The translations under genes were made by a program, and so were the position numbers. From Muribaculaceae bacterium (GTDB taxonomy: Bacteria; Bacteroidota; Bacteroidia; Bacteroidales; Muribaculaceae): a stretch of DNA of 64,000 nt. The notes beneath the pieces were generated by a model. That model ran no database searches. It was not told the DNA's origin and saw only the letters and a list, made by a program, of their open reading frames with translations. Location of the stretch: NCBI GenBank assembly GCA_051871515.1, contig JBJECY010000081.1, positions 15,894 through 79,893 of the forward strand, in the 5' to 3' direction. Below, one piece after another: positions 5,340 to 61,979 of the stretch; within the stretch, counting starts at the first letter, position 1; every line of letters starts with the position of its first letter.

Positions 5340-5669
5340 ATCATTTAATGAATAAATATGTGTTGATTATTGTTTTGCTTCACACAATAGAACCTTGCGC
5401 CCGTTGGAGAGCCAAAGCCTATCTATGGCAAAGATAGTGCAAACGAATGTAGAAAAGCCAAATTTGCGAGAGTTTTTTGCCGAGCGCAGCCTATTTTCTG
5501 TAAAGATACATTATAGCGAAACCACAACCAAAATTTTGATGAGGGTTTTTGCCCTTTGAAATTGCGAATGAAGCTGTGTGTCGGCTGCGATGGGAGAGTA
5601 ATGGGGTGCGTGTGTTTTAAATAATCTGTACGTGTTTATTCAGGCGCAGGCAGGTGTGAGAAGATGCTA

Positions 5670-7457
5670 TTAATGGAGCGAAAGGTTGAAATCTTGTATA
5701 AGCGCCTCAATTCCGGGATATTTGATGCGAACCTCCTCAATAATTTCGCGCGGTGATTTATATTTTTGTTTTGGGGCATTTTCAACCACCTTCACGTCCA
5801 TGCCCACATAGTCGTTTTGCAGATAGTCGCGCATCGATTTCAAGATAAAATCAACGTATTGATTGACGATATCCCTGCCGGTCACATCAAGGCTCACCAT
5901 AAAGAGGTTTTGGTTGACCAGCACAGGCATGGTGAGGCTCATCACGTTGATGAGCATTTTACGCGACGGGTTATCGGTAATCACCTTGTTCCATGCCGCG
6001 GAGAGCATCTCCTGATTGAAAATGGCGCGGCGCATAGGCTGCTGTGCGTTGGCAGCCGCGCCTGAGCTGCGCTCATCGGTGGCGTTGAACTGCACCACAG
6101 GCTTAACATTAAATTTGTGCCTGGGCGAAGCCGCGCCACCGGCTGCCTCAATCTCGTTGGTGATTGATTCAACCACCGAATTGCGCGAGCCGCCCTGCAA
6201 CGGAGTGTGCAAGGCGGGCGCCGAGCTCTTAGGCGTGTATGCCGACGGTTGCGCCGCAGGCTGCTGAGGGGCAGCTTGCGGTGCTGCCTGCTGAGGTTGC
6301 TGCGGCTGAGAGGCTATTGACTGCAACGGCTTGCCGCCGCCACCGCCACTCGGACCGGGCGTGGTGTCAAGTATTTGGCATATCTTTATAAGCGTAAGCT
6401 CCACCAGAAACTGCTTGTTGCTGGCAGTGGGGTAGTTAAGGTCGCAAGTGTTGCATAAGTCCATGGCACGATAATACCACTTGGGGTGCAACGTGGCGGC
6501 CTGTTGGGCAAACTTCTGCGCCACATCGTCGCTCATCTCAAGCAGCGAGAGCGTTTTGGGGTTGCAAGCCACCATAAGGTCGCGCAAATGCTGCGCCAAG
6601 CCATTAACAAAAAACCTTGAATCGAAGCCATGGTCGCGCACATCCTTATAGACCAACAACGCCTGTGGCACATCGCATGCCTTAAACGCCTCAACAAGGC
6701 GGAAATAATAATCGTGGTCGAGCACATTGAGATTGTCGATGGTGCTCTGATAGGTGATGTTGCCTTGCGAGGCAGCTGCCACCTGGTCGAAGATTGACAA
6801 GGCGTCGCGCATGGCGCCATCGGCTTTTTGAGCAATCACGTTGAGAGCCGATTCCTCGGCGGTGATGCCCTCTTGCGAGGCAATGTATTGCAGTTGCTCA
6901 ACAATGTCGTGCACGGTGATGCGCGAGAAGTCATAGATTTGGCAACGGCTCAAAATGGTGGGCAGAATCTTGTGCTTCTCGGTGGTGGCGAGAATGAAAA
7001 TGGCGTGAGCCGGCGGCTCTTCAAGCGTCTTTAGGAAGGCGTTGAACGCCTGAGCCGAGAGCATGTGCACCTCGTCAATGATAAACACGCGGTAGCGGCC
7101 TATCTGCGGCGGTATGCGCACCTGGTCAATGAGGTTGCGAATGTCGTCAACCGAGTTGTTTGACGCCGCATCGAGTTCCACAATATTATAGCTGCGCTGC
7201 TCGTTGAACGCCACACACGACTCGCATTGGTTGCAAGCCTCGTGTTCGGGCGTTGGACTGAGACAGTTGATGGTCTTGGCAAAAATGCGCGCACATGAAG
7301 TCTTGCCCACACCACGCGGACCGCAAAACAGATAGGCATGCGCCAAGCGGTCGCCATCGATAGCCGACTTTAGAGTATGGGTAAGAGCCTGTTGCCCCAC
7401 AACGCTGCGAAACGTTGACGGGCGGTACTTACGAGCTGATACTATATAATTTTCCAT
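5670..7457 (-). CDS. dnaX: DNA polymerase III subunit gamma/tau
   Basis: Walker A GPRGVGKTS, FIIDEVHMLS and Zn module CNQCESC are present. There is a Pro/Gln-rich linker (QPQQPQQAAPQAAPQQPAAQP). Confidence 0.9.
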   Translation of the reverse strand: MENYIVSARKYRPSTFRSVVGQQALTHTLKSAIDGDRLAHAYLFCGPRGVGKTSCARIFAKTINCLSPTPEHEACNQCESCVAFNEQRSYNIVELDAASNNSVDDIRNLIDQVRIPPQIGRYRVFIIDEVHMLSAQAFNAFLKTLEEPPAHAIFILATTEKHKILPTILSRCQIYDFSRITVHDIVEQLQYIASQEGITAEESALNVIAQKADGAMRDALSIFDQVAAASQGNITYQSTIDNLNVLDHDYYFRLVEAFKACDVPQALLVYKDVRDHGFDSRFFVNGLAQHLRDLMVACNPKTLSLLEMSDDVAQKFAQQAATLHPKWYYRAMDLCNTCDLNYPTASNKQFLVELTLIKICQILDTTPGPSGGGGGKPLQSIASQPQQPQQAAPQAAPQQPAAQPSAYTPKSSAPALHTPLQGGSRNSVVESITNEIEAAGGAASPRHKFNVKPVVQFNATDERSSGAAANAQQPMRRAIFNQEMLSAAWNKVITDNPSRKMLINVMSLTMPVLVNQNLFMVSLDVTGRDIVNQYVDFILKSMRDYLQNDYVGMDVKVVENAPKQKYKSPREIIEEVRIKYPGIEALIQDFNLSLH

Positions 7458-37925: not shown

Positions 37926-40409
37926 TTATTGCTTCACTATGCGTTGCACAGCGCAATTGCCGCCGGTGGTGGTCACTTTCATCACATAGATGCCGGGTGT
38001 TAGGTGGCTTATGTTGATGGTGGTTTGGTTGCTGTGCACTGACGGCATGTGCAACACTTCACTGCCTGAGATGGCAAAGATGCTTATTTGCTCAATGTTG
38101 TCAGGACAGTTAATGTTCACTTGGTCTTGTGCCGGATTGGGATAAACCGAGATTTCTTCGTTGTTGCTTTGGCTGAGAATGTTCTCAATGCCCGAGTTTG
38201 AGCCAACAGTGAAATCTTTTAGCGCCGTGAGTTTCTCGCAGCGGTTGTTGTTGTAGTTGAAGATGGCTGCCTGATAGGTCATTCCCACTTCACCCTTTTT
38301 GAATGGCACGTTGAAGTTGATAACCTTGGTTTCTCCTGGTGTAAGGTCGAAGATTTCCGACGAGCCGTAGCAAATCGACGTGCCACCATAGCGATAGATA
38401 TAAGCATCAAGTGCACCATTGAAATATCCGCCTGAGCAGGTCACGCGGGCAGTCATCTGCACGTTGGCGGCATCAACGTTGTAGGAATCTTTTATGGTGA
38501 AGATGCCCACTGAAAGTGAGTAGAGTCCGGTATCTTCTTTAATGGTGATTTCTTGTTTTTCGCCCACCGGGTTGCCGCTGTTGTCAATCACGCCAAAGTA
38601 ATAAGTGCCGGCGGTAATGGTGCTTGGCAGCGTGTTTATGAGCGTGTGGGTGGTGGTTTGCGATGTGGCAATCTCATATATCTCGGGCTTACCCTTGCTC
38701 ACCACGTTGTCTTCTGAATCGTAAATCACCGGATAGATGCGGTTACAGTAGTCGAGCCCTGAATTGCTTATTGACACCGTCACCGAGTAATTGTTGCCTT
38801 TATACAGACGGGTGTTGAAAGTGGCGCTTTCAAGGTTGAGGTGGGTGAGCACCACATCGGGCTCGGTGAAGGTGATTGAGCCGTCGGCAACGGTCATGTT
38901 GAGATATGGCATCTTGCCGTATTGCACAAAGGCTTTGTTATAGAGGTTGTGCGACACGTCGTAGATGGCAGGATAAACCACATAAGTGCCGTTGGCAAGC
39001 TTTTGCCTGATTTCGTTTGAGCTAACTTTTAGATTGTCGTTAAGCGCATAGTAATAGCCGGTTTTGATGTTGGTGTAAACCTGGCTGTTGATGTAGGTTT
39101 GGGCGTTGGTCTCGGTGTTCACAGCCATGATGCCCAGTTTCATCAGGTTCCATGTGCGGTAGATGTTGGCTGTGAAATAGCCGGTCATGGGGAAGGTGAT
39201 GGTGTGGTCGGCGCTTGTGTCGATGGTGTAAACATCGGGCACAAAATTGCCGTAAACGGCACCTTCAATGGTTGGGCTGCCGCCCTCGTCGGGCTTTATA
39301 TTATAAACAATGTCAATGCCGCTGCTATAACCGTCCTCGCTGCCGCCAATGCCTTGCTCGGTGGGATTGAGCGCCGATAGCTTGAAGTAGCCGTCGTCGA
39401 GTCCGCACCAGCCCCAGTTGATGTGGAAAAAGTTGTCGCGGTCATATCCGTCGCACACAAAGGCGTGTCCGGCTTTGGTGTTAAAACCGCTCATGTGCAC
39501 CACTCGGTTGTTTTGCAACTCGTTGTAGATGAGTGTGTTCCATTCGTCTATGCCATAAAACTCGCGCAGTGTGTAGCGCACGCTTTTGTCATAGCCAAAA
39601 TAGTTGGCGAGCGACTTTTGCACCTCGAGGGTTGCTGCGCCCGAAGTGGCGCCATAAGCCAGACTGCACGATGCTCCGCAGTGATACAACAATTGCGCCA
39701 CAGCCTGTTTTTGCTCCTCGTTGGCACCTGAGTCATACACGTTGAGCATATTGTTCCAGTCGTATGTGGCTTGGCTGAAGTCAACCGATATTTCGGTGCT
39801 TGTGCCATAGATATTGGTGGTGTAAGTGAAGCTTCCTGTGCCTGTTGGCGGCCAGTTGTGGTGTTTCATCACCTGTGCCATAGCGGTGGCGGTGCAGCCG
39901 GTGACGCAGTTGCCACCGCTGCCGGTGGGTGGGCACATGTTGTTGAATGGTGTGCTCTGGCCCCATCGTGTGGCGCAAAGCGGCGCAATGGGTGCGCGCT
40001 CATCGGCTTGCTCGGTTGTTGCCGATGCGGCGCTCAGGTTGTTGGCTACGGCATAGTCAATTTCTTTGGCATACTCGCCAAAAAGCACCTGCATGCCGGG
40101 AGGTATGTTATTGGGGTCGAAAGAGCCGTTGCTGCTATAACCGAGCACAGGCATGGCATTGTCGTGAGCCGACATTATCACAAAGCCCCCGTTTGAACCG
40201 CTGTTTATAACATAGAAATTGGTCAGATTGTTGCTGCTGTGGGTGTAGGCAAGCTGCATTTCGCCAGTTTGCGCCACCGATTTCATGCGACTATTGGTGC
40301 GCACAAATCGCTGTGCTCCTGCAATAGCCTCTTCAACGCTTAGTTGTCGTGCCGATGTTGAAAACCAAGCTCCAAGCAATAATGTTAGGATAAATAACTT
40401 TTTCATCAA
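37926..40409 (-). CDS. C10-family (streptopain-like) cysteine protease with T9SS C-terminal sorting domain (PrtT/interpain-like)
   Basis: N-terminal Spi-type propeptide (SVEEAIAGAQRFV...FYVINSGSNGGFVIMSAHD). Catalytic Cys context GCTATAMAQVMKHHNWP and catalytic His context GHAFVCDGYD. C-terminal ISVYPNPAQDQVNI...LTPGIYVMKV is a Por/T9SS CTD. Confidence 0.85.
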   Translation of the reverse strand: MMKKLFILTLLLGAWFSTSARQLSVEEAIAGAQRFVRTNSRMKSVAQTGEMQLAYTHSSNNLTNFYVINSGSNGGFVIMSAHDNAMPVLGYSSNGSFDPNNIPPGMQVLFGEYAKEIDYAVANNLSAASATTEQADERAPIAPLCATRWGQSTPFNNMCPPTGSGGNCVTGCTATAMAQVMKHHNWPPTGTGSFTYTTNIYGTSTEISVDFSQATYDWNNMLNVYDSGANEEQKQAVAQLLYHCGASCSLAYGATSGAATLEVQKSLANYFGYDKSVRYTLREFYGIDEWNTLIYNELQNNRVVHMSGFNTKAGHAFVCDGYDRDNFFHINWGWCGLDDGYFKLSALNPTEQGIGGSEDGYSSGIDIVYNIKPDEGGSPTIEGAVYGNFVPDVYTIDTSADHTITFPMTGYFTANIYRTWNLMKLGIMAVNTETNAQTYINSQVYTNIKTGYYYALNDNLKVSSNEIRQKLANGTYVVYPAIYDVSHNLYNKAFVQYGKMPYLNMTVADGSITFTEPDVVLTHLNLESATFNTRLYKGNNYSVTVSISNSGLDYCNRIYPVIYDSEDNVVSKGKPEIYEIATSQTTTHTLINTLPSTITAGTYYFGVIDNSGNPVGEKQEITIKEDTGLYSLSVGIFTIKDSYNVDAANVQMTARVTCSGGYFNGALDAYIYRYGGTSICYGSSEIFDLTPGETKVINFNVPFKKGEVGMTYQAAIFNYNNNRCEKLTALKDFTVGSNSGIENILSQSNNEEISVYPNPAQDQVNINCPDNIEQISIFAISGSEVLHMPSVHSNQTTINISHLTPGIYVMKVTTTGGNCAVQRIVKQ

Positions 40410-48903: not shown

Positions 48904-49887
48904 GGCGAGTGATGCAATACGCCCAAAAACACCAACCACGCCACCCGCGATGTCGGTCACATGTTGGGGCGTATGGCAATACGCCCGACGACCGCGGTGA
49001 TGCCAATAAAAAATGTGATGCGTTGTTGTAGGGGCGTATAGCAATACGCCCGGCGACCGCAGCGATGCCAATAAATAATGTGATGCGTTGTTGTAGGGGC
49101 GTATCGCAATACGCCCGGTGACCGCGGCGATGCCAACAAAAAATGTGATGCGTTGTTGTAGGGGCGTATCGCAATACGCCCGGCGACCGCAGCGTGGTCA
49201 TGATAAATACCAATGCGTGTATTTTGCATTACATCACATTAAACCCTGGCACATCGATTCCGGGCGTATCGCAATACGCCCGGCGACCGCGTCGATGCCA
49301 ACAAATAATGCGATGCATTGTTGTAGGGGCGTATGGCAATACGCCCGACGACCGCGGTGATGCCAATAAATAATGTGATGCGTTGTTGTAGGGGCGTATC
49401 GCAATACGCCCGGCGACCGCGGCGATGCCAAAAAAATGTGTTGCGTTGATGTAGGGGCGTATAGCATACGCCCGGTGACAGCAGCGAGGCCCCGATAAAT
49501 ACCATCATTTTGGATTTCAACGAATTAACCCCACGGCACACCGATTCCGGGCGTATTGCTATACGCCCCTACAGGCTTCGCCTCGTTTTGGGGTTGGGGT
49601 TTTTGATGTGCGTATTCGACACGCCCAATATTTTGCTTTACAACACATTAAACTTGGCACACCGATTCCGGGCGTATAGCATACGCCCGGCGACCGCGGC
49701 GTGGTCAACAAATAATGTGATGTGTTGTTGTAGGGGCGTATAGCATACGCCCGGTGACAGCAGCGAGGCCCCGATAAATACCATCATTTTGGATTTCAAC
49801 GAATTAACCCCACGGCACACCGATTCCGGGCGTATTGCTATACGCCCCTACAGGCTTCGCCTCGTTTTGGGGTTGGGGTTTTTGATG
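48904..49887. repeat. REP-like palindromic repeat array 2 (about 15 copies), including two 4 x 65-bp tandem runs and a 159-bp perfect direct duplication
   Basis: Palindromes at 48967, 49032, 49097, 49162, 49262, 49327, 49392, 49455, 49549, 49670, 49734 and 49828, plus degenerate copies. The units are reverse-complementary to those of array 1. Confidence 0.9.
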
Positions 49888-50173: not shown

Positions 50174-52057
50174 TTATTCTTGTGTGCTATCCCACCATAC
50201 AGGAATTGACCAAGTCAGTTTGTGGCGGTTCCAGCATGGTTGAGAGGTACCTGCTTCAACATATTCCATCAGGTCTTCAGCGCCAGGCACTTGATAACCG
50301 ATTTCTTGCAGGTTGTTCACGTTGTAGTTATACTCGTGTGAGCATTGACGCCAGCGGCGCAGACCCTTGCCCATTGGGATGTAGTCATGTTGCAACTGAG
50401 TGTTGTTGACATATTCCCAAGGCAATTCCCAGTTGAGAACGCAACCTTCAGCATAGTCCATGCGGCGCATATCGTTGAATGTCTCAACCGACATTTGCAT
50501 AGCAATACGCTTTTGGGTCATAATCTTAGCCAGGCTGAGGTCAGCAGCTGTGCCAATGGCATTTTCCAGATAGTTGTCTATATCAGCTTGTTCCATTGGA
50601 GTGAACGATGGGCAATCAGCAAGGTTGCGGTCTTCAGCAATCCATGAAGAGAGTCGTTCGTTCATCAATTCCATAGAAGCCTTGATACCTGCTTTGTATG
50701 CGGCAAATGCTTCTGATGTGTTGCCTTGGCGGAAGAGAACTTCAGCCTTGATGAAGCAAGCTTCGTGATATACGGCAAGGTAGGTAGGAGCGCTCACGCG
50801 GTTGTAGAACACACCTGATTGCTTTGAGCGGTCGTCGCTCTTGAGCTTGCGGTAGATGAGGTCAACGTTGGCAGCATAGCCCTTCGATGAGCTTGTGGTT
50901 TGGATGAAGATGGTGTCGCCTGTGCGAGTTTCGCTTGCGCAATACCAGCCACCCTTATCTGCGTTGTAAGAAGTGGTGTAAGGAGCAGAGTTGGTGCGGA
51001 TAGAAGTGTGCATGTCAACACCAGCAGTGCGGCGCCAGTTGCCCACAATCTTGATTGGTTGGTCAGCTACGTAATCAGGAATTTTTGGTTCGCCACCAGC
51101 AAAGTAAGCCCATGGCAACATCTTGTCGGCACGTGGGTCTTCAATGCCCTTGCCGTCGAAGTTGGTGAGGTTGTCAACGAGCATCTTGGTGGTGTAGTAG
51201 TTTGAGTTCATACCCCAAACTGAATACAATGGCGAGTAGTCAACCGGTTCATCCCAACCAAGCACGTCGTGTGACTTAGAGTTCTCGTCGAGGTGGTTGA
51301 TGATGGTGTTGTCAGAGTTGCTTTGTTGAGCCTTAGCCAAGCAGTCGAGAATGGTTGTAGGGTCATATTTGCCGTCCTTGTAGCTACCGTTGCCTTTCTT
51401 GGTAAGCTTGTTAATCCAACGAGCCTTCATCAGGTAGCACATCTTGAGCCAACGGCTCACGTCGCCTTGGTTCCAAGAGTCGCCGTAAACCAATCCCTTG
51501 GCATTAGGACCTTGTTCCTTTTGGAAGAGTTCAATAGCTTCGTCAATGAGGTCGAAGCAGCCCAAATAGATGGTGCGTCCGGTGTCATACTTAGGGATGG
51601 CGTTTTCGCCGATAGCATCGGTGAAAGGCATTTCGCCATAGAGGTCGGTCATAAGCATAAAGCCATAAGCTTTGAGGAAGCAAGCTGCGGCGGCATAGTG
51701 CCAAGCCTCGGCTGCCATAGCCTTTTCGTACATGCCCTCGATGTTAGGACCTGCACCAACAAAGAACCATTGATAAGGAGTAGTTACCCAAAGGATGGAA
51801 GGCATCCAAGCGGCAGCCAAACCATAGGTTGAGTACTGAGAGTTCATTGTGTAGTCGCCCATAGCCATGCATGTGCGGAAAGCAGCAAACTGGCAAGCGC
51901 TATTGGTATAGAACTGGCTGTGTGCCAGGTTTTGATAGTATTGGGCAGCACCATCGGTTGGGGTGTTGGGATTGGTGTTCACGTCGAGCCAATCGTTACA
52001 CGACGCCATTGAGAGGGCGAGGGCTGTACCTAATAATATTTTGCTAAATATTTTCAT
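50174..52057 (-). CDS. SusD/RagB-family outer-membrane lipoprotein (left pair)
   Basis: 627 aa with lipobox LSMASCNDWLDVN, which is typical of SusD. It is immediately downstream of SusC. Confidence 0.9.
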   Translation of the reverse strand: MKIFSKILLGTALALSMASCNDWLDVNTNPNTPTDGAAQYYQNLAHSQFYTNSACQFAAFRTCMAMGDYTMNSQYSTYGLAAAWMPSILWVTTPYQWFFVGAGPNIEGMYEKAMAAEAWHYAAAACFLKAYGFMLMTDLYGEMPFTDAIGENAIPKYDTGRTIYLGCFDLIDEAIELFQKEQGPNAKGLVYGDSWNQGDVSRWLKMCYLMKARWINKLTKKGNGSYKDGKYDPTTILDCLAKAQQSNSDNTIINHLDENSKSHDVLGWDEPVDYSPLYSVWGMNSNYYTTKMLVDNLTNFDGKGIEDPRADKMLPWAYFAGGEPKIPDYVADQPIKIVGNWRRTAGVDMHTSIRTNSAPYTTSYNADKGGWYCASETRTGDTIFIQTTSSSKGYAANVDLIYRKLKSDDRSKQSGVFYNRVSAPTYLAVYHEACFIKAEVLFRQGNTSEAFAAYKAGIKASMELMNERLSSWIAEDRNLADCPSFTPMEQADIDNYLENAIGTAADLSLAKIMTQKRIAMQMSVETFNDMRRMDYAEGCVLNWELPWEYVNNTQLQHDYIPMGKGLRRWRQCSHEYNYNVNNLQEIGYQVPGAEDLMEYVEAGTSQPCWNRHKLTWSIPVWWDSTQE

Positions 52058-52081: not shown

Positions 52082-55000
52082 TTAGAATGTTAAATTAACG
52101 CCGAAAGCGAAGCTTGCTGTTGCAGGCACGCCGCAGTAGTCAAAGCCAACTGATGACGAGCCGCCTGCGCCGGCACCTGATGCTGCTGCTTCTGGGTCAC
52201 CATCATAGTTGGTGAAGAGGAGCAGGTTGGTGGCGGTAGCTGTGAGCGAAGCACGCTTAATCACCTTAGTCTTAGCCAAGAATGATTGAGGAACTGTGTA
52301 AGAAAGTGAGAGTGTGCGCAGGCGCAGGCTGTTCACTGTGGTGAGCCAGTTGGCTGTCTCATAGTTGTAAGCGCCTGTGTAGTAGTTCTTGATAATGTTG
52401 TAGCCAAGCATTTCCTTGCCGCCGAAGGTGTAAACCTTGTCAGGTTCCCAAGTGTTGGTCACTTCGGTATAAACAGGCTTGCCTTCAGCATCTTTGCCGG
52501 TTTGTTGAACACCAGAGATGGTGAGAGGCTCGTTGCGGAATTCGCCTGACCACTTGCTGGTACCAGCCATTGTCATAGCATACTTGGTGCCGTTGAATAC
52601 GTCGCCGCCAATGCGGAATTCCCACAACATGTTGAGCGACCAGTTCTTCCAAGTGAAGGTGTTGTTCCATCCGCCAGTCATCTTGGCTTCGCGGTTACCC
52701 ACTTGCACTGTTGCAGTGTTTTGGGTTGGCATGCCGTTAGAGTCGAGTATCACTTTACCGTCGGTGGTGCGAGCCCACTTGGTACCAGAGATTGCCATGA
52801 AGTTGCCGCCCGAGATTGAGCAAGCCTTAGCTCCGGCATATTGCACGTCGGTGAGGTACATAAATTCCATACCTTCTGGCAGACCGTCCATTGTACCGCG
52901 GTTACCTGCCATGTTAATACCGGTTTCCCAAGTGAAGTTCTTGGTTTGTACAGGAGTACCGCTGATGCTAAGTTCCATACCCTTGTTGTAAACGTTACCT
53001 GCGTTGATTGAGCAGAAGATGTAACCGGTTGATTGTGGGCCGCGTGGGCTCAGAATCTGGTTGTAAGAGTCGTTGGTGTAGTAAGCATAGTCGAGTTTCA
53101 AGCGGTTGTGCAAGAAGCGGAGTTCGATACCAATTTCAGTTGACTTGGTCATTTCAGGCTTCAAATATGGGTTACCGCGTTCCCAGCTGTTACCCAAACC
53201 TACGATGTTGCCCAGATAGGTGTGAACAGGCCAAAGGTTGGTGTTGGTTTCATAAGCGCCGGTGTCTTTACCTACCTTAGCCCATGATGCACGCACCTTA
53301 CCATAGCTGAGAATACCTTCTTTCACAAAGTCGAGGTCTTGCATGAAGTTGGTGAATACAACAGCACCACTCACTGATGGATAGAAGTAGCTGCGGTTTT
53401 CAACTGGCAGAGTTGAAGTCCAGTCGTTACGTCCGGTCACTGTCAAGAACACGGTGCTCTTCCAGTCGGCGCGAAATTCGCCAAACACGCCCACAAGGCG
53501 TTTGCGGCTCATTGAGTGGCTGAATTGACGGTTAGTGTCGGGGGTGTTGTCGTAAGAGAAGAAGTCAGGCACTTGCAGGTCGTAGCTCATGAGGTAAGTG
53601 CTCTTAACCTTAGTGTCGTCGGTCGATGTGCCGACCATGAGGTTGAAGTCGAAGTCGCCAAAGCTCTTGTTGGCATTGAGCATGAAGTTGGTGCTCAAAT
53701 ACTTAAATTCACGAGAGTTGTCGCTGAGCATACCGTTTTGCCAAACTTGCTTAACCACGCCGCCTGCTGCGATGCGGTTTGAATAAGTGGCGGTGTATTT
53801 GTCAATACCCATGCGGTAAGATGCCCACAACCAGTCGGTGATGTCAGCGCGGACGCTGAAGCTACCGGTGAAGCGCTCGGTGTTGTCAGAAAGTTTGTTC
53901 TTGTTGATAATCCAATATGGGTTGTCACTTTCGTCCCATGGGTCGAGGCGGTCGCCAAAGAGGCGATAGCGAGTGCCGTCCTCGTTGAGGTAGTGGCGCA
54001 TGTCGTCGCTTGGAGCCCAGTTGTAAACGCGTGCAAGTGCACCGTCACCGCTTGAGCCGTAAAGGCCGCCTGAGGTGAAGGTCTTGGCAGTGCGTGCTTC
54101 GCTGTAAGCAGCGTTGGCACCAAAGGTAAACATCTTATACTTTTGCTCGCCGTTGAAGCGGAAGGTGCTCTTCTTGTAACCTGTTTCAGGCACAATACCG
54201 TCTTGGTCGTAGAACGAGCCAGAGAGGAAGAAGTTGCCGGTCTTGCTACCGCCTGAGATGCTCAGGTTGGTATCAACGATGCCGCCATTCTGGAAGAAGT
54301 TGCCTGGGTTGTCATAAACAGGGTCGGTAGCCTTCATCTTTTCGCCCCAAGAGTTGTAAGCGAAGTCGTTGAATGAAGTGCCAATGTAAGCGCCTGTTGA
54401 AGCGTCATATTGGTCTTCCATGAAACCGCGCTTAAATTGAGTTTGTTGCTCAGGCATCTTGTTCACCCACGAAGAGATGTACTTGGCGTTGAGGTTAACC
54501 TCAATGGCACCCTCTTTACCTTTCTTAGTGGTGATGAGCACAACGCCGTTGGCAGCGCGAGAACCGTAAAGGGCCGATGCGGCAGGGCCTTTGAGGATTG
54601 ACATGTTCTCAATATCCTCAGGGTTGATGTCCATCACGCGGTTTGAGGTGGTGGTGGCAGAGTTGGTTATACCGTCGAATGCCGAGTTACCAACCACTGA
54701 AGCAGAGTTGTCATAGATGATACCGTCAACCACAAAGAGCGGTTGGTTGTCGCGGCTTTCAGAGCCTGATGTACCACCACGCAGAATGATAGATGCACCT
54801 GAACCGGCAGCACCTGATGACTGAGTGATGTTAACGCCGGCAATCTTACCCGAGAGTGAGTTGATGGCGTTGGCGGTTTTGTTTTTCATAAGCTCTTCGG
54901 CGTTGAGGTCGTCAACGGCGTAGCCGAGTGACTTCTTGTCCTTCTTGATGCCGAGTGCGGTAACAACCACTTCGTCGAGGTTGGTTGAATCGCTGCTGAG

Positions 55001-55315
55001 CGATACGTTTACAGTAGAGGCGTTGCCCACTTTCACTTCTTTGGGTTGTTGGCCCACATAAGAGATGATGAGAGTGCTGCCTGGTGCTGCATTGATTGAA
55101 TATCTGCCGTTAACGTCGGTAGATACGCCTCGTTTTGTGCCTTTAACCCGAACGGTGGCACCTATGAGAGGCTCACCACTGGCATCGGTGACGATGCCGG
55201 TTACAGTGCTTGATTGTGCATGGGCAGCAAAGCCTGTATTGCACTCGTTGCTGAGTGAATAGGGTGCGCCCATTGCCAAACATGCGGCTGCGAACATTGC
55301 TAATGCTTTTTTCAT
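52082..55315 (-). CDS. SusC/RagA-family TonB-dependent outer-membrane transporter (left pair)
   Basis: 1077 aa. A carboxypeptidase-regulatory-like domain (GIVTDASGEPLIGATVRVKGT), TonB box/plug (DEVVVTALGIKK) and a C-terminal beta-barrel ending ...GVNLTF. Confidence 0.9.
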   Translation of the reverse strand: MKKALAMFAAACLAMGAPYSLSNECNTGFAAHAQSSTVTGIVTDASGEPLIGATVRVKGTKRGVSTDVNGRYSINAAPGSTLIISYVGQQPKEVKVGNASTVNVSLSSDSTNLDEVVVTALGIKKDKKSLGYAVDDLNAEELMKNKTANAINSLSGKIAGVNITQSSGAAGSGASIILRGGTSGSESRDNQPLFVVDGIIYDNSASVVGNSAFDGITNSATTTSNRVMDINPEDIENMSILKGPAASALYGSRAANGVVLITTKKGKEGAIEVNLNAKYISSWVNKMPEQQTQFKRGFMEDQYDASTGAYIGTSFNDFAYNSWGEKMKATDPVYDNPGNFFQNGGIVDTNLSISGGSKTGNFFLSGSFYDQDGIVPETGYKKSTFRFNGEQKYKMFTFGANAAYSEARTAKTFTSGGLYGSSGDGALARVYNWAPSDDMRHYLNEDGTRYRLFGDRLDPWDESDNPYWIINKNKLSDNTERFTGSFSVRADITDWLWASYRMGIDKYTATYSNRIAAGGVVKQVWQNGMLSDNSREFKYLSTNFMLNANKSFGDFDFNLMVGTSTDDTKVKSTYLMSYDLQVPDFFSYDNTPDTNRQFSHSMSRKRLVGVFGEFRADWKSTVFLTVTGRNDWTSTLPVENRSYFYPSVSGAVVFTNFMQDLDFVKEGILSYGKVRASWAKVGKDTGAYETNTNLWPVHTYLGNIVGLGNSWERGNPYLKPEMTKSTEIGIELRFLHNRLKLDYAYYTNDSYNQILSPRGPQSTGYIFCSINAGNVYNKGMELSISGTPVQTKNFTWETGINMAGNRGTMDGLPEGMEFMYLTDVQYAGAKACSISGGNFMAISGTKWARTTDGKVILDSNGMPTQNTATVQVGNREAKMTGGWNNTFTWKNWSLNMLWEFRIGGDVFNGTKYAMTMAGTSKWSGEFRNEPLTISGVQQTGKDAEGKPVYTEVTNTWEPDKVYTFGGKEMLGYNIIKNYYTGAYNYETANWLTTVNSLRLRTLSLSYTVPQSFLAKTKVIKRASLTATATNLLLFTNYDGDPEAAASGAGAGGSSSVGFDYCGVPATASFAFGVNLTF

Positions 55316-55460
55316 AAGCGTAACTTTTAATGGTTAATTGTAATTTTTATTTTTTTGGAACTCTATATATTTGCATTGTTCATTAGTTACGGCTGCAGCC
55401 ACTCGCTGCAGTGTGTAATTGCTGAGCTAAATAACCATTCCGTGTGCTTCTTGCGGCAAG

Positions 55461-55485
55461 AAAACCACCGTTTATTTGCATCCAC
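55461..55485. promoter_or_regulatory. Left inverted-repeat copy 1 (IR-L1), putative invertase site
   Basis: The sequence is aaaaccaccgtttatttgcatccac. The 11-nt core aaaaccaccgt is reverse-complemented at 56413-56423. Confidence 0.5.
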
Positions 55486-55503
55486 GTTTTTGTATTGCAT
55501 CAA

Positions 55504-55535
55504 CAAATGTATGAATTTTTTTTAGCATCACCAAA
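55504..55535 (-). promoter_or_regulatory. Canonical Bacteroidota promoter inside the putative invertible element, currently aimed at the left susC
   Basis: -7 caaatgta (reverse complement TAcaTTTG, 55504-55511) and -33 caaa (55532-55535), with a 20-nt spacer. Confidence 0.5.
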
Positions 55536-55564
55536 TTTTTTATAATATGTGTGATTGCAGAAAA

Positions 55565-55587
55565 AAAACCACCGTTTAGTTGTATCC
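55565..55587. promoter_or_regulatory. Left inverted-repeat copy 2 (IR-L2), overlapping the invertase stop codon
   Basis: The sequence aaaaccaccgtttagttgtatcc matches IR-L1 at 21 of 23 positions, in direct orientation. Confidence 0.5.
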
Positions 55588-56190
55588 ATCAACTTTCAAA
55601 CGTGTTAAGAAACGTGAAACTGTGCCTCGGTCAACTCCCAAAACACGGGCAATGTGGCGCACCGACTTGCCTTTGCCATACAGAGTCAAAAGCAGTTCCC
55701 GGTCCTTATAAAGTTTGCACTTTGTTACTGATGTGCGCCTGCCGCGCGGACGGCCCAATGCTATGCCTTGCGCACGCCTGAGTGCCAGAGCCTCTTTGGT
55801 GCGCAGGCAAATGAGCTGACGCTCAATCTCAGCCGATAGCCCAAAGGCAAACGCCAGCACTTTGCTTTGAATGTCGTCGCCAAGGCGGTAGTTGTCTTTG
55901 ATGGTCCACACCTTGCAACCTCTTGTCATGCAGATGTTTAGTATCTCCATCACCATAAATAAATTTCTTCCTAAGCGCGAAATCTCTGAGCAGATGATGG
56001 TGTCGTTGTGTCCCACCCTGTTGAGTAGCTGTCCCAAGCGGCGTTTGCCATACTCTTTGGCTCCGCTGATGGTTTCTTCAATCCAGCCGTCAATGTGATA
56101 ATCGTTTTGTTTGCAGAATCTTACGATTTCAAAGCGCTGGTTTTCCACTGTCTGCTTGTCGCTACTTACTCTAATATATCCGTAAATCAT
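55576..56190 (-). CDS. Serine-type DNA invertase (Hin/Gin/Mpi-like resolvase-family recombinase)
   Basis: 204 aa. The catalytic motif GYIRVSSDKQ, SRLGRN, and the E-helix LSAEIERQLICLRTKEAL are present, with a C-terminal HTH SVRHIARVLGVDRGTVSRFL. Confidence 0.9.
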   Translation of the reverse strand: MIYGYIRVSSDKQTVENQRFEIVRFCKQNDYHIDGWIEETISGAKEYGKRRLGQLLNRVGHNDTIICSEISRLGRNLFMVMEILNICMTRGCKVWTIKDNYRLGDDIQSKVLAFAFGLSAEIERQLICLRTKEALALRRAQGIALGRPRGRRTSVTKCKLYKDRELLLTLYGKGKSVRHIARVLGVDRGTVSRFLTRLKVDGYN

Positions 56191-56397
56191 AAAGTTAAGT
56201 TTGTATAAGTTAATAAATGTTGGGTTATGTTTTGTTTTTTGGTATTTCGGGTCAGAATTTTTGAAAAATCGTAAATATCACCAGTTGTTAAATTAACCAT
56301 TATTGATGTATATTCACATTATTTCACTAAAAATATTATATCGTTTAGTTTGTTAATTAAAAAAAACAAAATAAATTTGTTGATGCTAAATTTTTCA

Positions 56398-56423
56398 AGT
56401 GGCTCAATCAATACGGTGGTTTT
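56398..56423. promoter_or_regulatory. Right inverted repeat (IR-R)
   Basis: The sequence is gtggctcaatcaatacggtggtttt. Its reverse complement, aaaaccaccgtattgattgagccac, matches IR-L1/L2 (11-nt perfect core plus TTG.A.CCAC). Confidence 0.5.
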
Positions 56424-56545
56424 GTCGAGTCAGCGTAAGAGAATTAGCATTAACATAATGTATTAGAATTGATTTTATAACTACAAATAAAATAAATTAA
56501 AGAGTACAACTACAAAAAACTATTAACACTTAAACCTTGTCGCTT

Positions 56546-59500
56546 ATGAAAAAAGCATTAGCAATGTTTGCAGCGTTATGCTTAGCAGTGGGTGCACCTT
56601 ATTCCGGCGAAAACAGTTGGAACGAGGGATTTGTTGCTCATGCACAAGGCAATGCTGTAAGTGGTGTCGTTAAAGACTCCAAAGGTGAACCTCTGATTGG
56701 TGCTACAATTATGGTAAAGGGCACTACAAGAGGTGTATCTACCGACGTTAACGGTAGATTTACAGTACAAGCCGCTCCTAACAGTGTGCTTCAAGTCTCA
56801 TTTGTGGGAATGAAGACAAAGTCTGTGAAGGTGTCTGGCCAAAAAAACATCGACGTTGTCCTTGAGGGCACGGGTGCCGAGCTTGATGACCTGGTGGTTG
56901 TGGGCTATGGCCAACAGAAGAAAATCAACTTGACCGGTGCTGTTTCGTCGGTTGACGTTGAGAAGACCCTTCAAGGCCGTCAGATTCCTGACGTTGGTCG
57001 CGGTCTGCAAGGTACCACTCCTGGCTTGAACGTGGTGTTGCCTAACGGTGAAATCGGTTCAGACCCAACAATCAAGATTCGTGGTCAGTTCGCCTCATTC
57101 CAAGGCTCAACCCAACCGCTCATCTTGATGGACAACGTGGAGATTCCTTCAATTCAGATTGTTAACCCCGACGACGTTGAGAGCATCTCAGTGCTCAAGG
57201 ATGCCGCTGCTGCTTCAATCTACGGTTCAAAAGCTGCCTTCGGTGTAATCCTTATCACCACCAAGAAGGGTGCCAAGACCGAATCAGTGAACGTATCTTA
57301 TTCAGCCAACTTTGCATGGCAAAACATCTCAAAGAAGATGGAGATGGGCGGTATTGACGCATTGCAATATCGCGTTGATGCCATGAAGCGTGTTGGCTCT
57401 ACCCTCTACGGTGCATTCTGGTATGTCGATGAAGAATCGCTTGCTGCTGCTCGCCAATGGCAAGCAGACTACGGCGGCAAGATTGGCAAGAACGACCCAT
57501 TTGTTTACGGCCGTGACTGGTATGTTAACGAAAAGGGATATAAGTTCTCAAAACGTATCTTCGACCCATACGACTACATGATTCGCGAATGGGCTCCATC
57601 AATGACCCACAACCTTTCGGTTAACGGTAGGTCGGGCAGGACTTCTTATAATATAGGTCTTGGCTACCTCGACCAATCAGGTCTTATTGCTCCGTCGAAG
57701 CACGATGATTTCCGTCGTTATAATGCTTCGGTTCGTTTGACCACCGAAATCAACAAGTATGTCACCGTTCATGCCGGTTTGACCTACTCAATGCGCAACA
57801 AGCGCTATGCTTATGCAACCAACTCAACCACCGCCGACCCTTGGTTGTATCTCTATCGTTGGGATACCACTTATCCAATGGGCTACGACGACCAAGGTCG
57901 TGACTTGCGTTCTCCTTACAACGAAATGAAGAACGCTAACACAGCCAACAAGCAAAACACTTACCTCTCGTTTAACGCTGGTTTGACTATCAACCTCACC
58001 AACGATTGGCACGTGAACGTTGACTACACCTATGCACAAGAAGACCAAGTCTGGAACAAGATTGGTACTAAGTTCACAATGTGCAACACTTGGGGCACTG
58101 CATTGCTTCGCACAAACGAAGACGGCACACAAATGTATGTCGACAAGAACACTGGTGTAGAGGTTTCATCGAGCGATGCAAACGCAATCCCTGCTTACGA
58201 ACTGCAATATTTCCAATACACCTCTGACGGTGCTAACCCTGACCACATACGTCGTGAAGTGACCAACGCCAAGCGCCACACTTGGAACATCACCACCGAC
58301 TATAACTGGCAAATCAACGAATCAAACAACTTGAAGGCGCTCCTCGGTGCTAACATCGTTGATTGGGAATCAGACAACAGCTGGTCACAAATCACCAACC
58401 TCACCGACATCGTTAACCCATCATGGGACAAGACCAACGGCACACAAACTGCAAGCGGTAACCTCTATTGGGAAGGACAAGTTGGTTTCTTTGGTCGTTT
58501 GAACTATAGTTTGATGGATAAATACCTCTTGGAAGCTAACCTCCGCTACGACGCATCGTCGAAGTTCCCAGAACACTTGCGTTGGCGTTGGTTCCCATCG
58601 TTCTCAGGAGGATGGCGCGTAAGCGAAGAAACATTCATGAACTGGGCTAAGCCAGCACTTCAAGCTGCTAAGATTCGTGCATCTTGGGGTAAGATTGGTG
58701 ACCAATCAGTGGCAAGTTCACTCTATGTTCCAACCATGGCACAAGGTCAAATCAGCTGGTTGGCAGGCGGCAAGAAGCTTGTTTACGTTGGCACACCAGC
58801 CGCTGTTCTCGCCGACATCACTTGGCAAGACATCGTAACCACCGACTTTGGTATCGACCTCTCGTTCCTCGATGGCCGCGTAGCCCTCACTTACGACTGG
58901 TATCAACGTGACACCAAGAACATGATTGTTGGTATGGAAGGTGTTCCTGCAACATTCGGTTCTTCTGCACCTAAGGGCAACTTTGGTAACCTGCGCACTC
59001 GCGGTTGGGAAATTGCTCTTAACCTTAACCACCGCCTCAGCTGCGGCCTTGGCATGAACGCTACATTCACCATCAGCGATGCTAAGACTAAGATTACTGA
59101 ATACGGTACTGGTCAAAGTGTTGACGGCTGGTATAACGGCAAGACCTACGGTGAAATCTGGGGTTACGAAGTTGACCGCCTCTATCAAAAGGATGACTTC
59201 GTTTATGACGGCGACGGCAACCTGGTTACCACTTGGGCATATCATGGCAAAGAAGTTGCTGAAGGCACTGCAGGCGCCAAGAAGGTTAATAAGCTGAAAG
59301 ACCCTAACGGTGTTTATCAAGACAACTTCCAAGGTGGCAACTTTATGTTCGGTCCTGGTGACGTTAAGTATAAAGACCTCGACGGCAACGGCGATATCTA
59401 CAACACCGCTTACCTCAAGGAATACAACGGTGCTCTCATTGGTCCTGACGATCCTAACTACAACAGCCCAGACGCCAAGTTGGTTGGTTCAAACACTGTT

Positions 59501-60073
59501 CGCGACCACGGTGACAAGAAAGTTATCGGTAACAGCACTCCACGCTACGAGTATGGTATCCGCTTAGGCTTAGACTATAAGGGATTCGACTTCTCAATCT
59601 TTGGTCAAGGTATTGGCAAGCGCACAATCTGGGGCGAAGGCTTCTTGGCTATTCCGGGCTTCAACTGCGGCGACGGTGCAATGCCACAAGCCATTGTTGG
59701 CAACTATTGGACTGAAGACAATCCTAACGCATTCTATCCTGCAGCATTCAATATGGGTGGCAGCAGCACAGGCTACAACTTGCAAGAATCTGACCGCTAT
59801 GCCCTCAACATGTCGTACTTCCGCATCAAGAACGTCACTCTTGGCTACACCTTGCCAGTTGAACTCACTCGCAAGGCTTACATCAGCAAGTGCCGCATTT
59901 ATGTTGCCGCAGAAAACTTGTTTACATTCGACAAGTTGCACGACCTGCCTATCGACCCAGAAGTTGTATCGGGTGTTTCAATGTGGAACTCAAGCAACTA
60001 CAACAGCGGCCGTACAGGTGTAGGTACTCCTGCAATGAAGAACTACTCAGTTGGTATTCAGTTGAACTTCTAA
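56546..60073 (+). CDS. SusC/RagA-family TonB-dependent outer-membrane transporter (right pair)
   Basis: 1175 aa from ATG 56546 (the ORF-track start at 56537 is a TTG). The N-terminus is nearly identical to the left SusC. It has a TonB box DDLVVVGYGQQKK and a barrel ending ...GIQLNF. Confidence 0.9.
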   Translation: MKKALAMFAALCLAVGAPYSGENSWNEGFVAHAQGNAVSGVVKDSKGEPLIGATIMVKGTTRGVSTDVNGRFTVQAAPNSVLQVSFVGMKTKSVKVSGQKNIDVVLEGTGAELDDLVVVGYGQQKKINLTGAVSSVDVEKTLQGRQIPDVGRGLQGTTPGLNVVLPNGEIGSDPTIKIRGQFASFQGSTQPLILMDNVEIPSIQIVNPDDVESISVLKDAAAASIYGSKAAFGVILITTKKGAKTESVNVSYSANFAWQNISKKMEMGGIDALQYRVDAMKRVGSTLYGAFWYVDEESLAAARQWQADYGGKIGKNDPFVYGRDWYVNEKGYKFSKRIFDPYDYMIREWAPSMTHNLSVNGRSGRTSYNIGLGYLDQSGLIAPSKHDDFRRYNASVRLTTEINKYVTVHAGLTYSMRNKRYAYATNSTTADPWLYLYRWDTTYPMGYDDQGRDLRSPYNEMKNANTANKQNTYLSFNAGLTINLTNDWHVNVDYTYAQEDQVWNKIGTKFTMCNTWGTALLRTNEDGTQMYVDKNTGVEVSSSDANAIPAYELQYFQYTSDGANPDHIRREVTNAKRHTWNITTDYNWQINESNNLKALLGANIVDWESDNSWSQITNLTDIVNPSWDKTNGTQTASGNLYWEGQVGFFGRLNYSLMDKYLLEANLRYDASSKFPEHLRWRWFPSFSGGWRVSEETFMNWAKPALQAAKIRASWGKIGDQSVASSLYVPTMAQGQISWLAGGKKLVYVGTPAAVLADITWQDIVTTDFGIDLSFLDGRVALTYDWYQRDTKNMIVGMEGVPATFGSSAPKGNFGNLRTRGWEIALNLNHRLSCGLGMNATFTISDAKTKITEYGTGQSVDGWYNGKTYGEIWGYEVDRLYQKDDFVYDGDGNLVTTWAYHGKEVAEGTAGAKKVNKLKDPNGVYQDNFQGGNFMFGPGDVKYKDLDGNGDIYNTAYLKEYNGALIGPDDPNYNSPDAKLVGSNTVRDHGDKKVIGNSTPRYEYGIRLGLDYKGFDFSIFGQGIGKRTIWGEGFLAIPGFNCGDGAMPQAIVGNYWTEDNPNAFYPAAFNMGGSSTGYNLQESDRYALNMSYFRIKNVTLGYTLPVELTRKAYISKCRIYVAAENLFTFDKLHDLPIDPEVVSGVSMWNSSNYNSGRTGVGTPAMKNYSVGIQLNF

Positions 60074-60086
60074 AACTAATTTGAAA

Positions 60087-61979
60087 ATGAAAAACAGATT
60101 ATCATTAATATTGTTAAGCATAGCACTGTGCGTTGTGGCTGTTTCGTGCGACGACATTCTTGACCGTCCTGAAAAGAACTCCCCCAGCGATTCAACATTC
60201 TGGAAAACAGAAAGCGACCTCTCGCTCTATGCTAACGGCTTCTATGCCAACTATTTTATTGGTTACGGACAGGGATGGAGCGCAAGTTACTCTCCATTCC
60301 GCGGCTACGGCTTCAGCGACGATGTGGCTTCTACAGGTACTCAAGCCAACTTCACTTCAAGCCTTCCTTCTACGGTGTTCAGCACCTCAGAAACTGCCGT
60401 AGGCACTTATAGCACCGAATACACTTGCCCAAGCATGGTGTTCTCGTGGATTCGCAAGGCTAACATCATGATTGACCGCATCGAAACCAAGGCTAAGTCA
60501 AGTTTGTCAACTGAGGCTTACAACCACTGGCTGGCTGTTGCCAAGTTCTTCAAATGCTATTCTTATTGCCGCCTTGTTGAGCGTTTTGGCGATGTGCCTT
60601 ACTTTGAAACTCAACCTGACGCATCAGATTTCGATGAACTCTACAAGGACCGCGACTCGCGAATCTTTGTTATGGACAAGGTTTATGACATGTCGAATGA
60701 AATTCTTGCCAACATGCGCACAAACGATGGCACCGACAAGCTCAACCGCTATGTTGCTGCTGCATTCATCTCGCGCTGGTTCCTCTTTGAAGGTACTTGG
60801 CAGAAATATCACGGTGGCGACCAAGCCGCAGCCAAGAAATATCTTCAAATGGCTCGCGACGCCGCTCAACTGGTGATGGATTCGGGCAACTATGCAATCG
60901 ACAAATCAGTTCGCGACTTGTGGGGCTCACAAGACCTCAGCAGCAAGGAAGCACTCATGGTTCGCCACTTCCTCGATTCAGAGGCTATTCGTCACTGTGT
61001 GGCTTCTTATTCAAACAGTACCGAAAGTCAATCGGGCTTGAACCTCGCATTCTTGAAGTCGGTTATCCGTCAAGACGGTAAGCCTTACACCACTTCGTCA
61101 CTTTGCGATGGCAACGACCCAAAATCGCTTTCACTCCCTGTAATGGGTAAGACTTGCGACCCACGCTTTGAAGCATCAATCAGCGACCTTCCTGTGCAAT
61201 CATCTTCTACTCTTGTTTATCAATGCAAGTTCATTGACCGCGCAGCTTGGAACATGTCGAACTCTGAACGTGGTGTTCTAGCAATCTATCAGAGTGTAAC
61301 CAACACCAACGATGCTCCGGTTATCCGCTATGCTGAAGTTCTGCTCAGCTGGATTGAGGCTAAGGCTGAATTGGCACTCCTTGGTGACATTGCTGTATCT
61401 CAAGATGACATCGACCGCTCAATCAACGTGCTTCGCGACCGTCCACTCGATGCAGTGGCAACTGAAAAGGGCTTGAAAAACACTGCTCACATGCAACTTA
61501 ATGAAATCACTGCTGACTTCGACCCAGAACGCGATGCCGACGTTGACCCATTGGTATGGGAAATCCGCCGCGAACGCCGTCTTGAAATGGTATTCGAACA
61601 CAGCCGTATCCTTGACCTTCGCCGCTGGCACAAACTCGACTACATGGACAACGTAGCGCATCCTGAAACAATGCGTGGTCCGTGGGTTGACTTTGCTAAC
61701 GACACTTACAAAGGTCCGGGCAAGCCAACTGATGCCAATGGTCAACTTGCAATCAGCGCGTTGCTTAAGCCTGGTTCTACCCAAGTTCAAAAAGCCGATG
61801 GCACTATTGTGACTTACGATGGCACTAACGCTGAAGATATGGTTGGTTTCTACCTCCCAACTTCTGTTAAGCCTCGCAATGCGTTCTACGAAAGAAGCTA
61901 TTTGAGCCCAATCGGAACTCAAGACATCAGTAACTACAATGTGAAGGGTTATACACTTACCCAAACCGCAGGTTGGTAA
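60087..61979 (+). CDS. SusD/RagB-family outer-membrane lipoprotein (right pair)
   Basis: Lipobox VAVSCDDILDRPE; 630 aa from ATG 60087. Confidence 0.9.
   Translation: MKNRLSLILLSIALCVVAVSCDDILDRPEKNSPSDSTFWKTESDLSLYANGFYANYFIGYGQGWSASYSPFRGYGFSDDVASTGTQANFTSSLPSTVFSTSETAVGTYSTEYTCPSMVFSWIRKANIMIDRIETKAKSSLSTEAYNHWLAVAKFFKCYSYCRLVERFGDVPYFETQPDASDFDELYKDRDSRIFVMDKVYDMSNEILANMRTNDGTDKLNRYVAAAFISRWFLFEGTWQKYHGGDQAAAKKYLQMARDAAQLVMDSGNYAIDKSVRDLWGSQDLSSKEALMVRHFLDSEAIRHCVASYSNSTESQSGLNLAFLKSVIRQDGKPYTTSSLCDGNDPKSLSLPVMGKTCDPRFEASISDLPVQSSSTLVYQCKFIDRAAWNMSNSERGVLAIYQSVTNTNDAPVIRYAEVLLSWIEAKAELALLGDIAVSQDDIDRSINVLRDRPLDAVATEKGLKNTAHMQLNEITADFDPERDADVDPLVWEIRRERRLEMVFEHSRILDLRRWHKLDYMDNVAHPETMRGPWVDFANDTYKGPGKPTDANGQLAISALLKPGSTQVQKADGTIVTYDGTNAEDMVGFYLPTSVKPRNAFYERSYLSPIGTQDISNYNVKGYTLTQTAGW

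Follow-up and report, generated by a model that had tools for sequence, protein, structure and literature searches.

A DNA segment carrying an Mpi-family serine invertase gene and a predicted promoter inverts between two divergent SusC/SusD operons in Muribaculaceae

Introduction

In the Hin/hix system of Salmonella (fljBA), the gene of a small serine recombinase and an outward-facing promoter lie together inside a segment of about 1 kb that is inverted by conservative reciprocal exchange, and the hix sites are short imperfect dyads whose A-rich half-sites end in AAACC or AAACG. Other systems, such as Min of p15B, Pin, Cin or the R64 shufflon, use more than two crossover sites per invertase and rearrange parts of the coding sequence of tail-fibre or pilus genes. 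At the sap locus of Campylobacter fetus, one promoter segment between opposed surface-protein genes picks the gene that is expressed, a process that depends on RecA and homologous recombination at conserved 5' ends and involves no dedicated serine invertase. Here, we describe an invertible segment from a Muribaculaceae bacterium (NCBI GenBank assembly GCA_051871515.1, contig JBJECY010000081.1, positions 15,894 to 79,893 of the forward strand) in which an Mpi-family serine invertase gene and a predicted promoter lie between two divergent SusC/SusD operons. Throughout, the window denotes the whole stretch of 64,000 nucleotides (nt) that was analysed, and the genome context that we report is that of these 64 kb.

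Gut Bacteroidota take up nutrients mainly through SusC/SusD pairs, which also often serve as phage receptors and antigens and whose phase variation influences how strains persist. In Bacteroides fragilis, phase variation of SusC/SusD proteins by DNA inversion is brought about by the tyrosine recombinase Tsr0667 in a shufflon-type system (PMC4747536), and invertons adjoining genes for TonB-dependent and SusD proteins have been reported from other Bacteroides (PMC8375218). The serine invertase Mpi (Ssr2) of B. fragilis serves 13 distant regions in trans, among them 7 capsule promoters; its gene is arranged head-to-head with tsr19, and no location within an invertible segment is described for it (PMC4747536). 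The published Mpi repeat is ARACGTTCGTN, which is continued as GTTCGTTTAA in B. intestinalis (quoted in PMC8375218).

The Muribaculaceae locus shares with Hin/hix the small serine recombinase gene and outward promoter inside a segment of about 1 kb, the conservative reciprocal exchange and sites that are likewise short imperfect dyads with A-rich half-sites. It differs in that the recombinase belongs to the Mpi family, in that the flipped promoter faces a second divergent operon rather than nothing, and in having a third site and a fixed copy of the promoter. With B. fragilis Mpi it has in common the protein family (NCBIfam NF009949), a site core related to ARACGTTCGTN (PMC8375218) and the flipping of segments with TTTG/TAnnTTTG promoters, but the invertase gene of the present locus is carried by its own segment, the targets are SusC/SusD genes and the core is a variant, AAACGGTGGT. 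Tsr0667 and the other tyrosine-recombinase invertons offer a precedent for SusC/SusD phase variation by inversion in Bacteroidales; in those systems, however, the recombinase usually lies outside the inverted DNA and whole genes or 5' ends are often moved, whereas the present locus combines a serine recombinase with a promoter cassette. Compared with the multiple-inversion systems, the shuffled unit would be a promoter, with three sites in the window, and the likeness to sap is confined to a promoter-bearing segment between oppositely oriented surface-protein genes, which here comes with a serine invertase. Our literature searches returned no description of an Mpi-family invertase riding inside its own segment, of such a segment between two divergent SusC/SusD operons, or of duplicated promoter-plus-site cassettes. 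The general kind of switch is known, both from the invertons of Bacteroidales and from its Hin-like working; its layout is unusual.

Results

Inversion between two sites in natural populations

The start codons of two divergent susC genes, at 55315 on the minus strand and at 56546 on the plus strand, leave a gap of 1230 nt. The features in and around this gap that concern the switch are as follows.

55451-55484, plus strand: crossover-type site L1, with an exact core; direct repeat of L2 over 34 nt (85% identical)
55504-55535, minus strand: predicted promoter P-left, TTTG-20 nt-TACATTTG, from the motif scan; points through L1 at the left susC
55555-55588, plus strand: crossover site L2, core at 55565-55575; recombinant junctions in contig L005
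55576-56190, minus strand: Mpi-family serine invertase gene (204 amino acids; NF009949, Pfam Resolvase and HTH_38)
55576-56412, no strand: segment that inverts, delimited by the cores of L2 and R; 859 bp if both cores are counted (55565-56423); reversed in contig L005
56196-56203, plus strand: TAAGTTTG box, divergent from the invertase start, without a -33 box at suitable spacing
56349-56379, plus strand: predicted promoter P-right, TTTG-19 nt-TAAATTTG, from the motif scan; directed through R towards the right susC from a position just inside R
56400-56423, minus strand: crossover site R, core at 56413-56423; recombinant junctions in contig L005 and a contig break at 56413

An earlier, sequence-only reading of this DNA had proposed an invertible element, bounded by inverted repeats and containing a serine invertase and a promoter, between the two operons. 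We found its features at the coordinates it gave, including the 204-amino-acid serine recombinase in the gap, and its central proposal is borne out by the data below. The three sites share an 11-mer, AAAACCACCGT, that is exact at 55461-55471 (L1, plus strand) and 55565-55575 (L2, plus strand) and reverse-complemented at 56413-56423 (R). The 64 kb contain no other exact copy, and two further copies with one mismatch compare with 1.44 expected by chance.

Exact-protein look-ups with the invertase and the two SusC proteins led to Logan contigs of one run series (SRR306167xx-8xx), and the evidence is accordingly at the level of contigs. Twelve contigs span all three sites. The window arrangement is present in 11 distinct contigs from 11 samples, while the remaining one, L005 (SRR30616842), corresponds to window positions 53115-55575, followed by 56423-55565 reversed and then by 56413-56583, with 100% identity throughout. 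Its two junctions consist of the outer flank of L2, the core and the inner flank of R, and of the outer flank of R, the core and the inner flank of L2, which amounts to an exact reciprocal exchange within the 11-mer. The shared core of 11 nt is far shorter than the k-mer length of 31 that we assume for Logan assemblies; if this assumption holds, these joins must exist in the reads and are not chimeras. In addition, contig L096 (SRR30616845) starts with base 56413, the earliest base shared by both orientations, and this position would be the branch point of the de Bruijn graph for a mixed population. The search of assemblies for both orientations, which had been suggested beforehand, thus yielded one flipped contig against 11 in the window state, and we conclude that the element inverts and is a real genetic switch. 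The 859-bp segment contains the invertase gene, the TAAGTTTG box and P-right, so that L2 and R flank both a predicted promoter and an invertase gene and, with both orientations present in sequence data, the segment has the properties of an inverton.

The matched part of L2 and R extends over 24 nt at 75%. The core of L2 directly abuts the invertase stop codon, so the open reading frame (ORF) stays intact on flipping, and the inner half of L2 spans the last codons of the gene; the core of R precedes the right susC by 122 nt. On the other strand, the window site reads AAACG-GT-GGTTTT and aligns with the site AAAACG-GA-CGTTTT of a related locus, L048. The window core on that strand, AAACGGTGGT, agrees with ARACGTTCGTN at 8 of 10 positions and is a related variant rather than the consensus itself, and AAACGTCCGT of L048 agrees at 9 of 10. 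From these alignments, we infer that the site consists of a central dinucleotide between two A-rich half-sites, an organisation in line with a serine recombinase, and that cleavage would take place at the central AC/GT dinucleotide. A search of JGI metagenome contigs with the degenerate site pattern AAAACCACCGTWTWKWTKBAKCCAY gave two unrelated chance matches and no further copies of the locus.

Promoters and the predicted outcome of inversion

The full promoter motif, TTTG-N19-21-TAnnTTTG, was scanned for on both strands of the whole window, which holds eight such bipartite motifs. Two of them, P-left and P-right, fall in this gap; both face outward, and the -7 box of each is followed after about 20-35 nt by a site core. 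Transcripts from P-left and P-right are predicted to begin near 55497 (minus strand) and near 56386 (plus strand), respectively. They are homologous and mirrored, forming the inverted repeats I2 and I3, with an alignment score of 40 against -15 +/- 9 for shuffles. P-left, whose motif with its 20-nt spacer had been recognised in the sequence-only reading, is positioned between L1 and L2, that is, outside the 859-bp segment seen to flip. P-right had been overlooked. The earlier remark that TTTG is absent from 56424-56545 is correct, with zero occurrences, but beside the point, since P-right sits just inside R. The rightward TAAGTTTG box to which attention had been drawn is present but is not accompanied by a suitably spaced -33 box; it is possibly a weak promoter, and in the related locus L009 the corresponding position (5949-5981) is occupied by a full promoter. 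With one promoter motif for each operon, the window does not represent the state, on for the left pair and off for the right, that had been assigned to it.

We believe that these elements probably constitute a self-contained site-specific inversion switch, in which the local invertase, encoded inside the element, would recombine the inverted sites L2 and R and would thereby flip the 859 bp that carry its own gene and the outward-facing P-right. If the motifs are active promoters, P-right would in the window orientation drive the right susC/susD operon through R while the fixed P-left would drive the left operon, one promoter each. In the flipped orientation, P-right would come to stand in tandem behind P-left with both facing the left susC, and the right operon would be left without a promoter. 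The net effect would be a right SusC/SusD pair that is phase-variable between ON and OFF and a left pair that stays on and is probably boosted. Going by the promoter motifs, we regard ON/OFF variation of the right pair, with the left pair kept and possibly raised, as the most likely outcome.

Several points weigh against this interpretation. The flipped state is represented by just one assembled contig, and the promoter motif scan did not identify a promoter for the invertase gene itself. The right operon of the flipped orientation might still be transcribed from the TAAGTTTG box or by read-through out of the invertase gene. Catalysis could also be supplied in trans by a genome-wide master Mpi, canonical genes for which are present in other Muribaculaceae metagenome-assembled genomes (MAGs). 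Moreover, L1 appears to be as good a site as L2, and a description with two sites may be incomplete.

Related loci and the third site

A genome scan returned more than 577 relatives of the invertase with 66-70% identity, and the genome loci of 80 relatives were fetched for a comparison of context. Almost none of the 80 had flanking inverted repeats of at least 13/14 nt, and most are uninformative on this switch because they lie in other contexts, such as restriction-modification (RM) genes or prophage. SusC/SusD genes stand beside the invertase in 2 of the 80 loci, L009 and L048, both from Muribaculaceae, and a protein search starting at L009 led to L101 (GCA_051878455.1) as the fourth locus. 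L009, L101 and L048 share with the window the divergent susC genes, the internal Mpi-family invertase, the flanking inverted sites and homologous promoter cassettes. Across the four loci, the invertases are 67-70% identical to each other and each is kept inside its segment, and the cassettes align as TTTG-N19/20-TA(A/C)ATTTG(T/C)T followed by a spacer of about 20-35 nt and the site core. When L009 is set against the window, the right SusC/SusD proteins are 92-93% identical at the amino acid level, compared with 70% for the invertase and 34% for the opposite SusC; invertase and left pair appear to have been swapped as a module between otherwise close genomes.

The number of cassettes differs between these loci. 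In L009, an inverted site at 5761-5790 is complemented by three direct sites (S1, S2 and S3) downstream of the invertase, which bound two perfect 101-nt promoter cassettes (6618-6819) facing the neighbouring susC. Site S2 is composed of the left half of S3 and the right half of S1, which places the breakpoints of the duplication inside the 7-nt core AACGGAC; such breakpoints are compatible with unequal site-specific exchange and also with slippage. L107, with an invertase 93% identical to the L009 enzyme, has a single cassette (1161-1265), so that copy number is polymorphic between close relatives. L101 likewise has one cassette, between two sites, and the window has two. In L048, a 31-nt, 90% inverted repeat (AAAACGTCCGTTTT) surrounds the invertase gene, and two tandem outward promoters have a degenerate site between them.

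This comparison bears on a broader interpretation that we put forward as a tentative possibility, in which L1, L2 and R are all used and two promoter-plus-site cassettes are dealt between the operons, so that the promoters could be distributed 1/1, 2/0 or 0/2 and the number of cassettes could be altered by unequal exchange at the site cores. At least three sites are present, as in shufflon-like systems, namely three exact cores in the window and four sites in L009. In a base-by-base comparison the flanks of L1, which has the exact core, match R as well as those of L2 do, and P-left and P-right belong to homologous cassettes in both of which the promoter precedes the site. The paired cassettes of L009, with their breakpoints in the site core, and the single cassettes of L107 and L101 would fit with this proposal as well. 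However, neither an L1 x R nor an L1 x L2 junction occurs among the 12 spanning contigs, in which L1 has parental junctions only and all recombinants are L2 x R; the sample is too small for L1 to be taken as unused. The excision of the 104-bp segment through L1 x L2, which the sequence-only reading had envisaged, is accordingly absent from every contig. Furthermore, any tandem duplication has an end-to-start junction and the pattern in L009 could have arisen by slippage at a 7-nt microhomology, while the degenerate middle site of L048 indicates that an extra site can decay. We can therefore offer only as a possibility that the locus is a promoter-partitioning device, in which a private Mpi-type invertase, having together with its site diverged from the master Mpi, would deal two or more interchangeable cassettes via three or four sites in graded states instead of a binary switch and would itself change their copy number. 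If this were true, the switch would be insulated from the capsule invertons of the genome.

Some further observations were made at the related loci. In L048, the susC 5' ends and leaders form a 133-nt inverted repeat with 98% identity (5227-5359 and 7027-7159), at which the contig ends; they are far more alike than the corresponding ends in the window, which is suggestive of gene conversion or of a second way of inversion that is driven by homology. Sequences closely related to the L009 invertase fall into clusters with 100-200 members and are found on contigs about 1 kb long, as would be expected if assemblies break up at invertible segments. In L099 (313-984; P0060), a 223-amino-acid invertase ORF crosses the right crossover site (ACGGAC at 973) and the contig ends 6 nt past the stop codon; the last residues would hence change on flipping. 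Several canonical Mpi-family relatives also stand beside large Type IIG-like RM genes (Eco57I, MmeI_Mtase, TaqI_C) in L045 (6001-11225), L018 (5974-8956), L054 (5962-11204) and L007 (5980-10539), and in L045, L018 and L054 a lone TaqI_C specificity-domain ORF overlaps the invertase stop codon, which looks like inversion-driven switching of RM specificity. The closest relatives, P0002 and P0007, are both in unrelated contexts; P0007 (68% identical; L109-L113, gene at 5001-5627) is in a prophage-like region with VRR_NUC, Phage_integrase, HNH and TerL.

The invertase and its specificity

The invertase comprises a Pfam Resolvase domain (residues 2-142, E 6e-31) and an HTH_38 domain (residues 162-197), which corresponds to the architecture of the small serine recombinases Hin, Gin, Cin and Pin with their N-terminal catalytic serine domain and C-terminal helix-turn-helix. 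Both the RVS serine and the SRLGR motif with its arginines are present, and GYIRVSS aligns with GYVRVST of Gin. Over residues 1-198, the protein scores 306.5 bits against NCBIfam NF009949 ('master DNA invertase Mpi family'; cut-off 272), the sole NCBIfam model for which it exceeds the cut-off, and an identical protein in a Muribaculaceae MAG carries a source annotation of the same Mpi-family name. In the comparison with solved structures, the match to Gin (4m6f) has E 7e-10 and is limited to the catalytic domain; the Tn3 and gamma-delta resolvases are matched just as well (about 1e-9), and close kinship with Hin and Gin was not found. The description as Hin-like in the sequence-only reading is thus apt for the way in which the element works, but not for the family: by its sequence, the invertase is a member of the Mpi family and not a homologue of Hin or Gin in the narrow sense.

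Canonical Mpi proteins are about 79% identical to each other, compared with about 67% between them and the window invertase. In the C-terminal DNA-binding part, the window protein is 40% identical to canonical Mpi, whereas the canonical proteins are 59% identical among themselves. Together with the variant core, the diverged helix-turn-helix suggests a private site specificity. The invertase ORF of the window is intact and identical across many samples; a second allele of the invertase occurs in L086. A candidate for the invertase promoter, TTTATTTG at 56484-56491 on the minus strand, lies outside the segment and inside the conserved susC leader, is a relaxed match only and was not adopted.

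These findings are relevant to the question of which enzyme flips the segment. We consider it unlikely that a master Mpi acts on it in trans and that the local gene is a passenger or a decaying paralogue. Such a role would be in keeping with the Mpi-family score of the window protein, with the reach of B. fragilis Mpi over 13 distant regions (PMC4747536) and with the canonical genes in other Muribaculaceae MAGs. However, the local ORF is intact and the same in many samples, the site core departs from the canonical repeat at 2 of 10 positions and the DNA-binding domain has diverged. Moreover, the invertase is retained within the segment in four of four loci despite the low mutual identity of the proteins, which argues that a cognate local enzyme has been selected for.

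The crossover preferred in the sequence-only reading, between L1 and R over about 960 bp, would carry P-left together with the invertase gene and re-aim it at the right susC, so that ON-left/OFF-right would alternate with OFF-left/ON-right. L1 and R do share the exact core in inverted orientation and P-left has a canonical promoter motif, but we regard this version as very improbable, since the recombinant that was found is the 859-bp exchange L2 x R, which leaves P-left unmoved and shifts P-right instead, and since P-right already faces the right susC, so that a flip between L1 and R would just swap two promoters with no qualitative effect. That the flipped contig, one against 11, reflects an assembly artefact or a rare, strain-fixed rearrangement without a regulatory role can practically be dismissed, given the precise reciprocal exchange at a core shorter than the assumed k, the independent contig L096 that breaks exactly at the core, the conservation of the architecture with its outward promoters in four loci, and the hundreds of cluster members on contigs of about 1 kb among the relatives, which fit fragmentation at such segments.

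Flanking genes and repeats

The two pairs of transporter genes and the repeat that links their 5' ends are listed below.

50174-52057, minus strand: left SusD-like lipoprotein gene (627 amino acids; Pfam SusD-like_2 and SusD-like; the nearest solved structures are SusD homologues)
52082-55315, minus strand: left SusC/RagA TonB-dependent transporter gene (1077 amino acids; TIGR04056, 659 bits; Pfam CarbopepD_reg_2, Plug and beta-barrel)
55293-55320, partner 56541-56568, no strand: perfect inverted repeat (28 nt) shared by the starts of the two susC genes; part of a longer repeat of their paralogous 5' ends (238 nt, 72%)
56546-60073, plus strand: right SusC/RagA transporter gene (1175 amino acids; TIGR04056, 788 bits; orthologues in L009, 92%, and L048, 79% at the amino acid level)
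60081-61979, plus strand: right SusD-family lipoprotein gene (Pfam SusD_RagB; weak NanU match)

In agreement with the sequence-only reading, Pfam annotation of the flanks in the window revealed no enzyme or regulator gene attached to either pair, and both pairs are 'orphans'. Searches of PDB and NCBIfam for a clue to their substrates gave just generic SusD matches and the weak match to NanU. A lysyl-tRNA-synthetase-like ORF starts at 62284, directly 3' of the right susD. On the other side, the left susD is followed by convergent ORFs without a Pfam match and by two tandem arrays of a 65-nt unit just 3' of the gene, at 48962-49194 and 49262-49491, with 3.6 copies each and 88-92% matches. The unit contains the palindrome GGGCGTATCGCAATACGCCC, short inverted copies occur at about 49546-49576 and 49825-49855, and the repeat resembles a REP-like intergenic repeat. 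A search of Rfam for leader RNAs yielded sub-threshold noise alone.

We also considered a second recombination site at the 28-nt inverted repeat of the susC starts, where contigs end at 56570 and 56546. The contigs gave no sign of recombination at this repeat, and the candidate was rejected when a 43-nt stretch over the susC start (56541-56583) turned out to be identical in a co-occurring Muribaculaceae species (L101, 1214-1256). With the assumed k of 31, this shared stretch explains the contig ends at 56570 and, in L101, at 1227 and 1214; the end at 56546 is left unaccounted for by it.

Unrelated to the switch, the window encodes an 827-amino-acid protein on the minus strand (37926-40409) with a Spi inhibitor, Peptidase_C10 and CARDB domains and a type IX secretion sorting tail.

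Discussion

Our analysis of the reciprocal exchange between L2 and R, of the promoter cassettes and of the related loci suggests that in Muribaculaceae a diverged copy of the family of capsule master invertases has been recruited as a local, Hin-like switch, a route to SusC/SusD phase variation other than that of the tyrosine recombinases. In such an arrangement, the switch would couple two transporter operons so that a cell can expose both SusC/SusD pairs or only one of them. As both orientations exist in natural samples, orientation-dependent expression is directly testable.

The findings also affect how the name of the family is to be understood. Proteins labelled 'master DNA invertase Mpi' are not just global regulators; many of them are local invertases, found near RM genes, in prophages or beside SusC/SusD genes. 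Finally, the modules of cassette plus site, with their apparently private specificity, could serve as orthogonal pairs of recombinase and site for the genetics of Bacteroidota.

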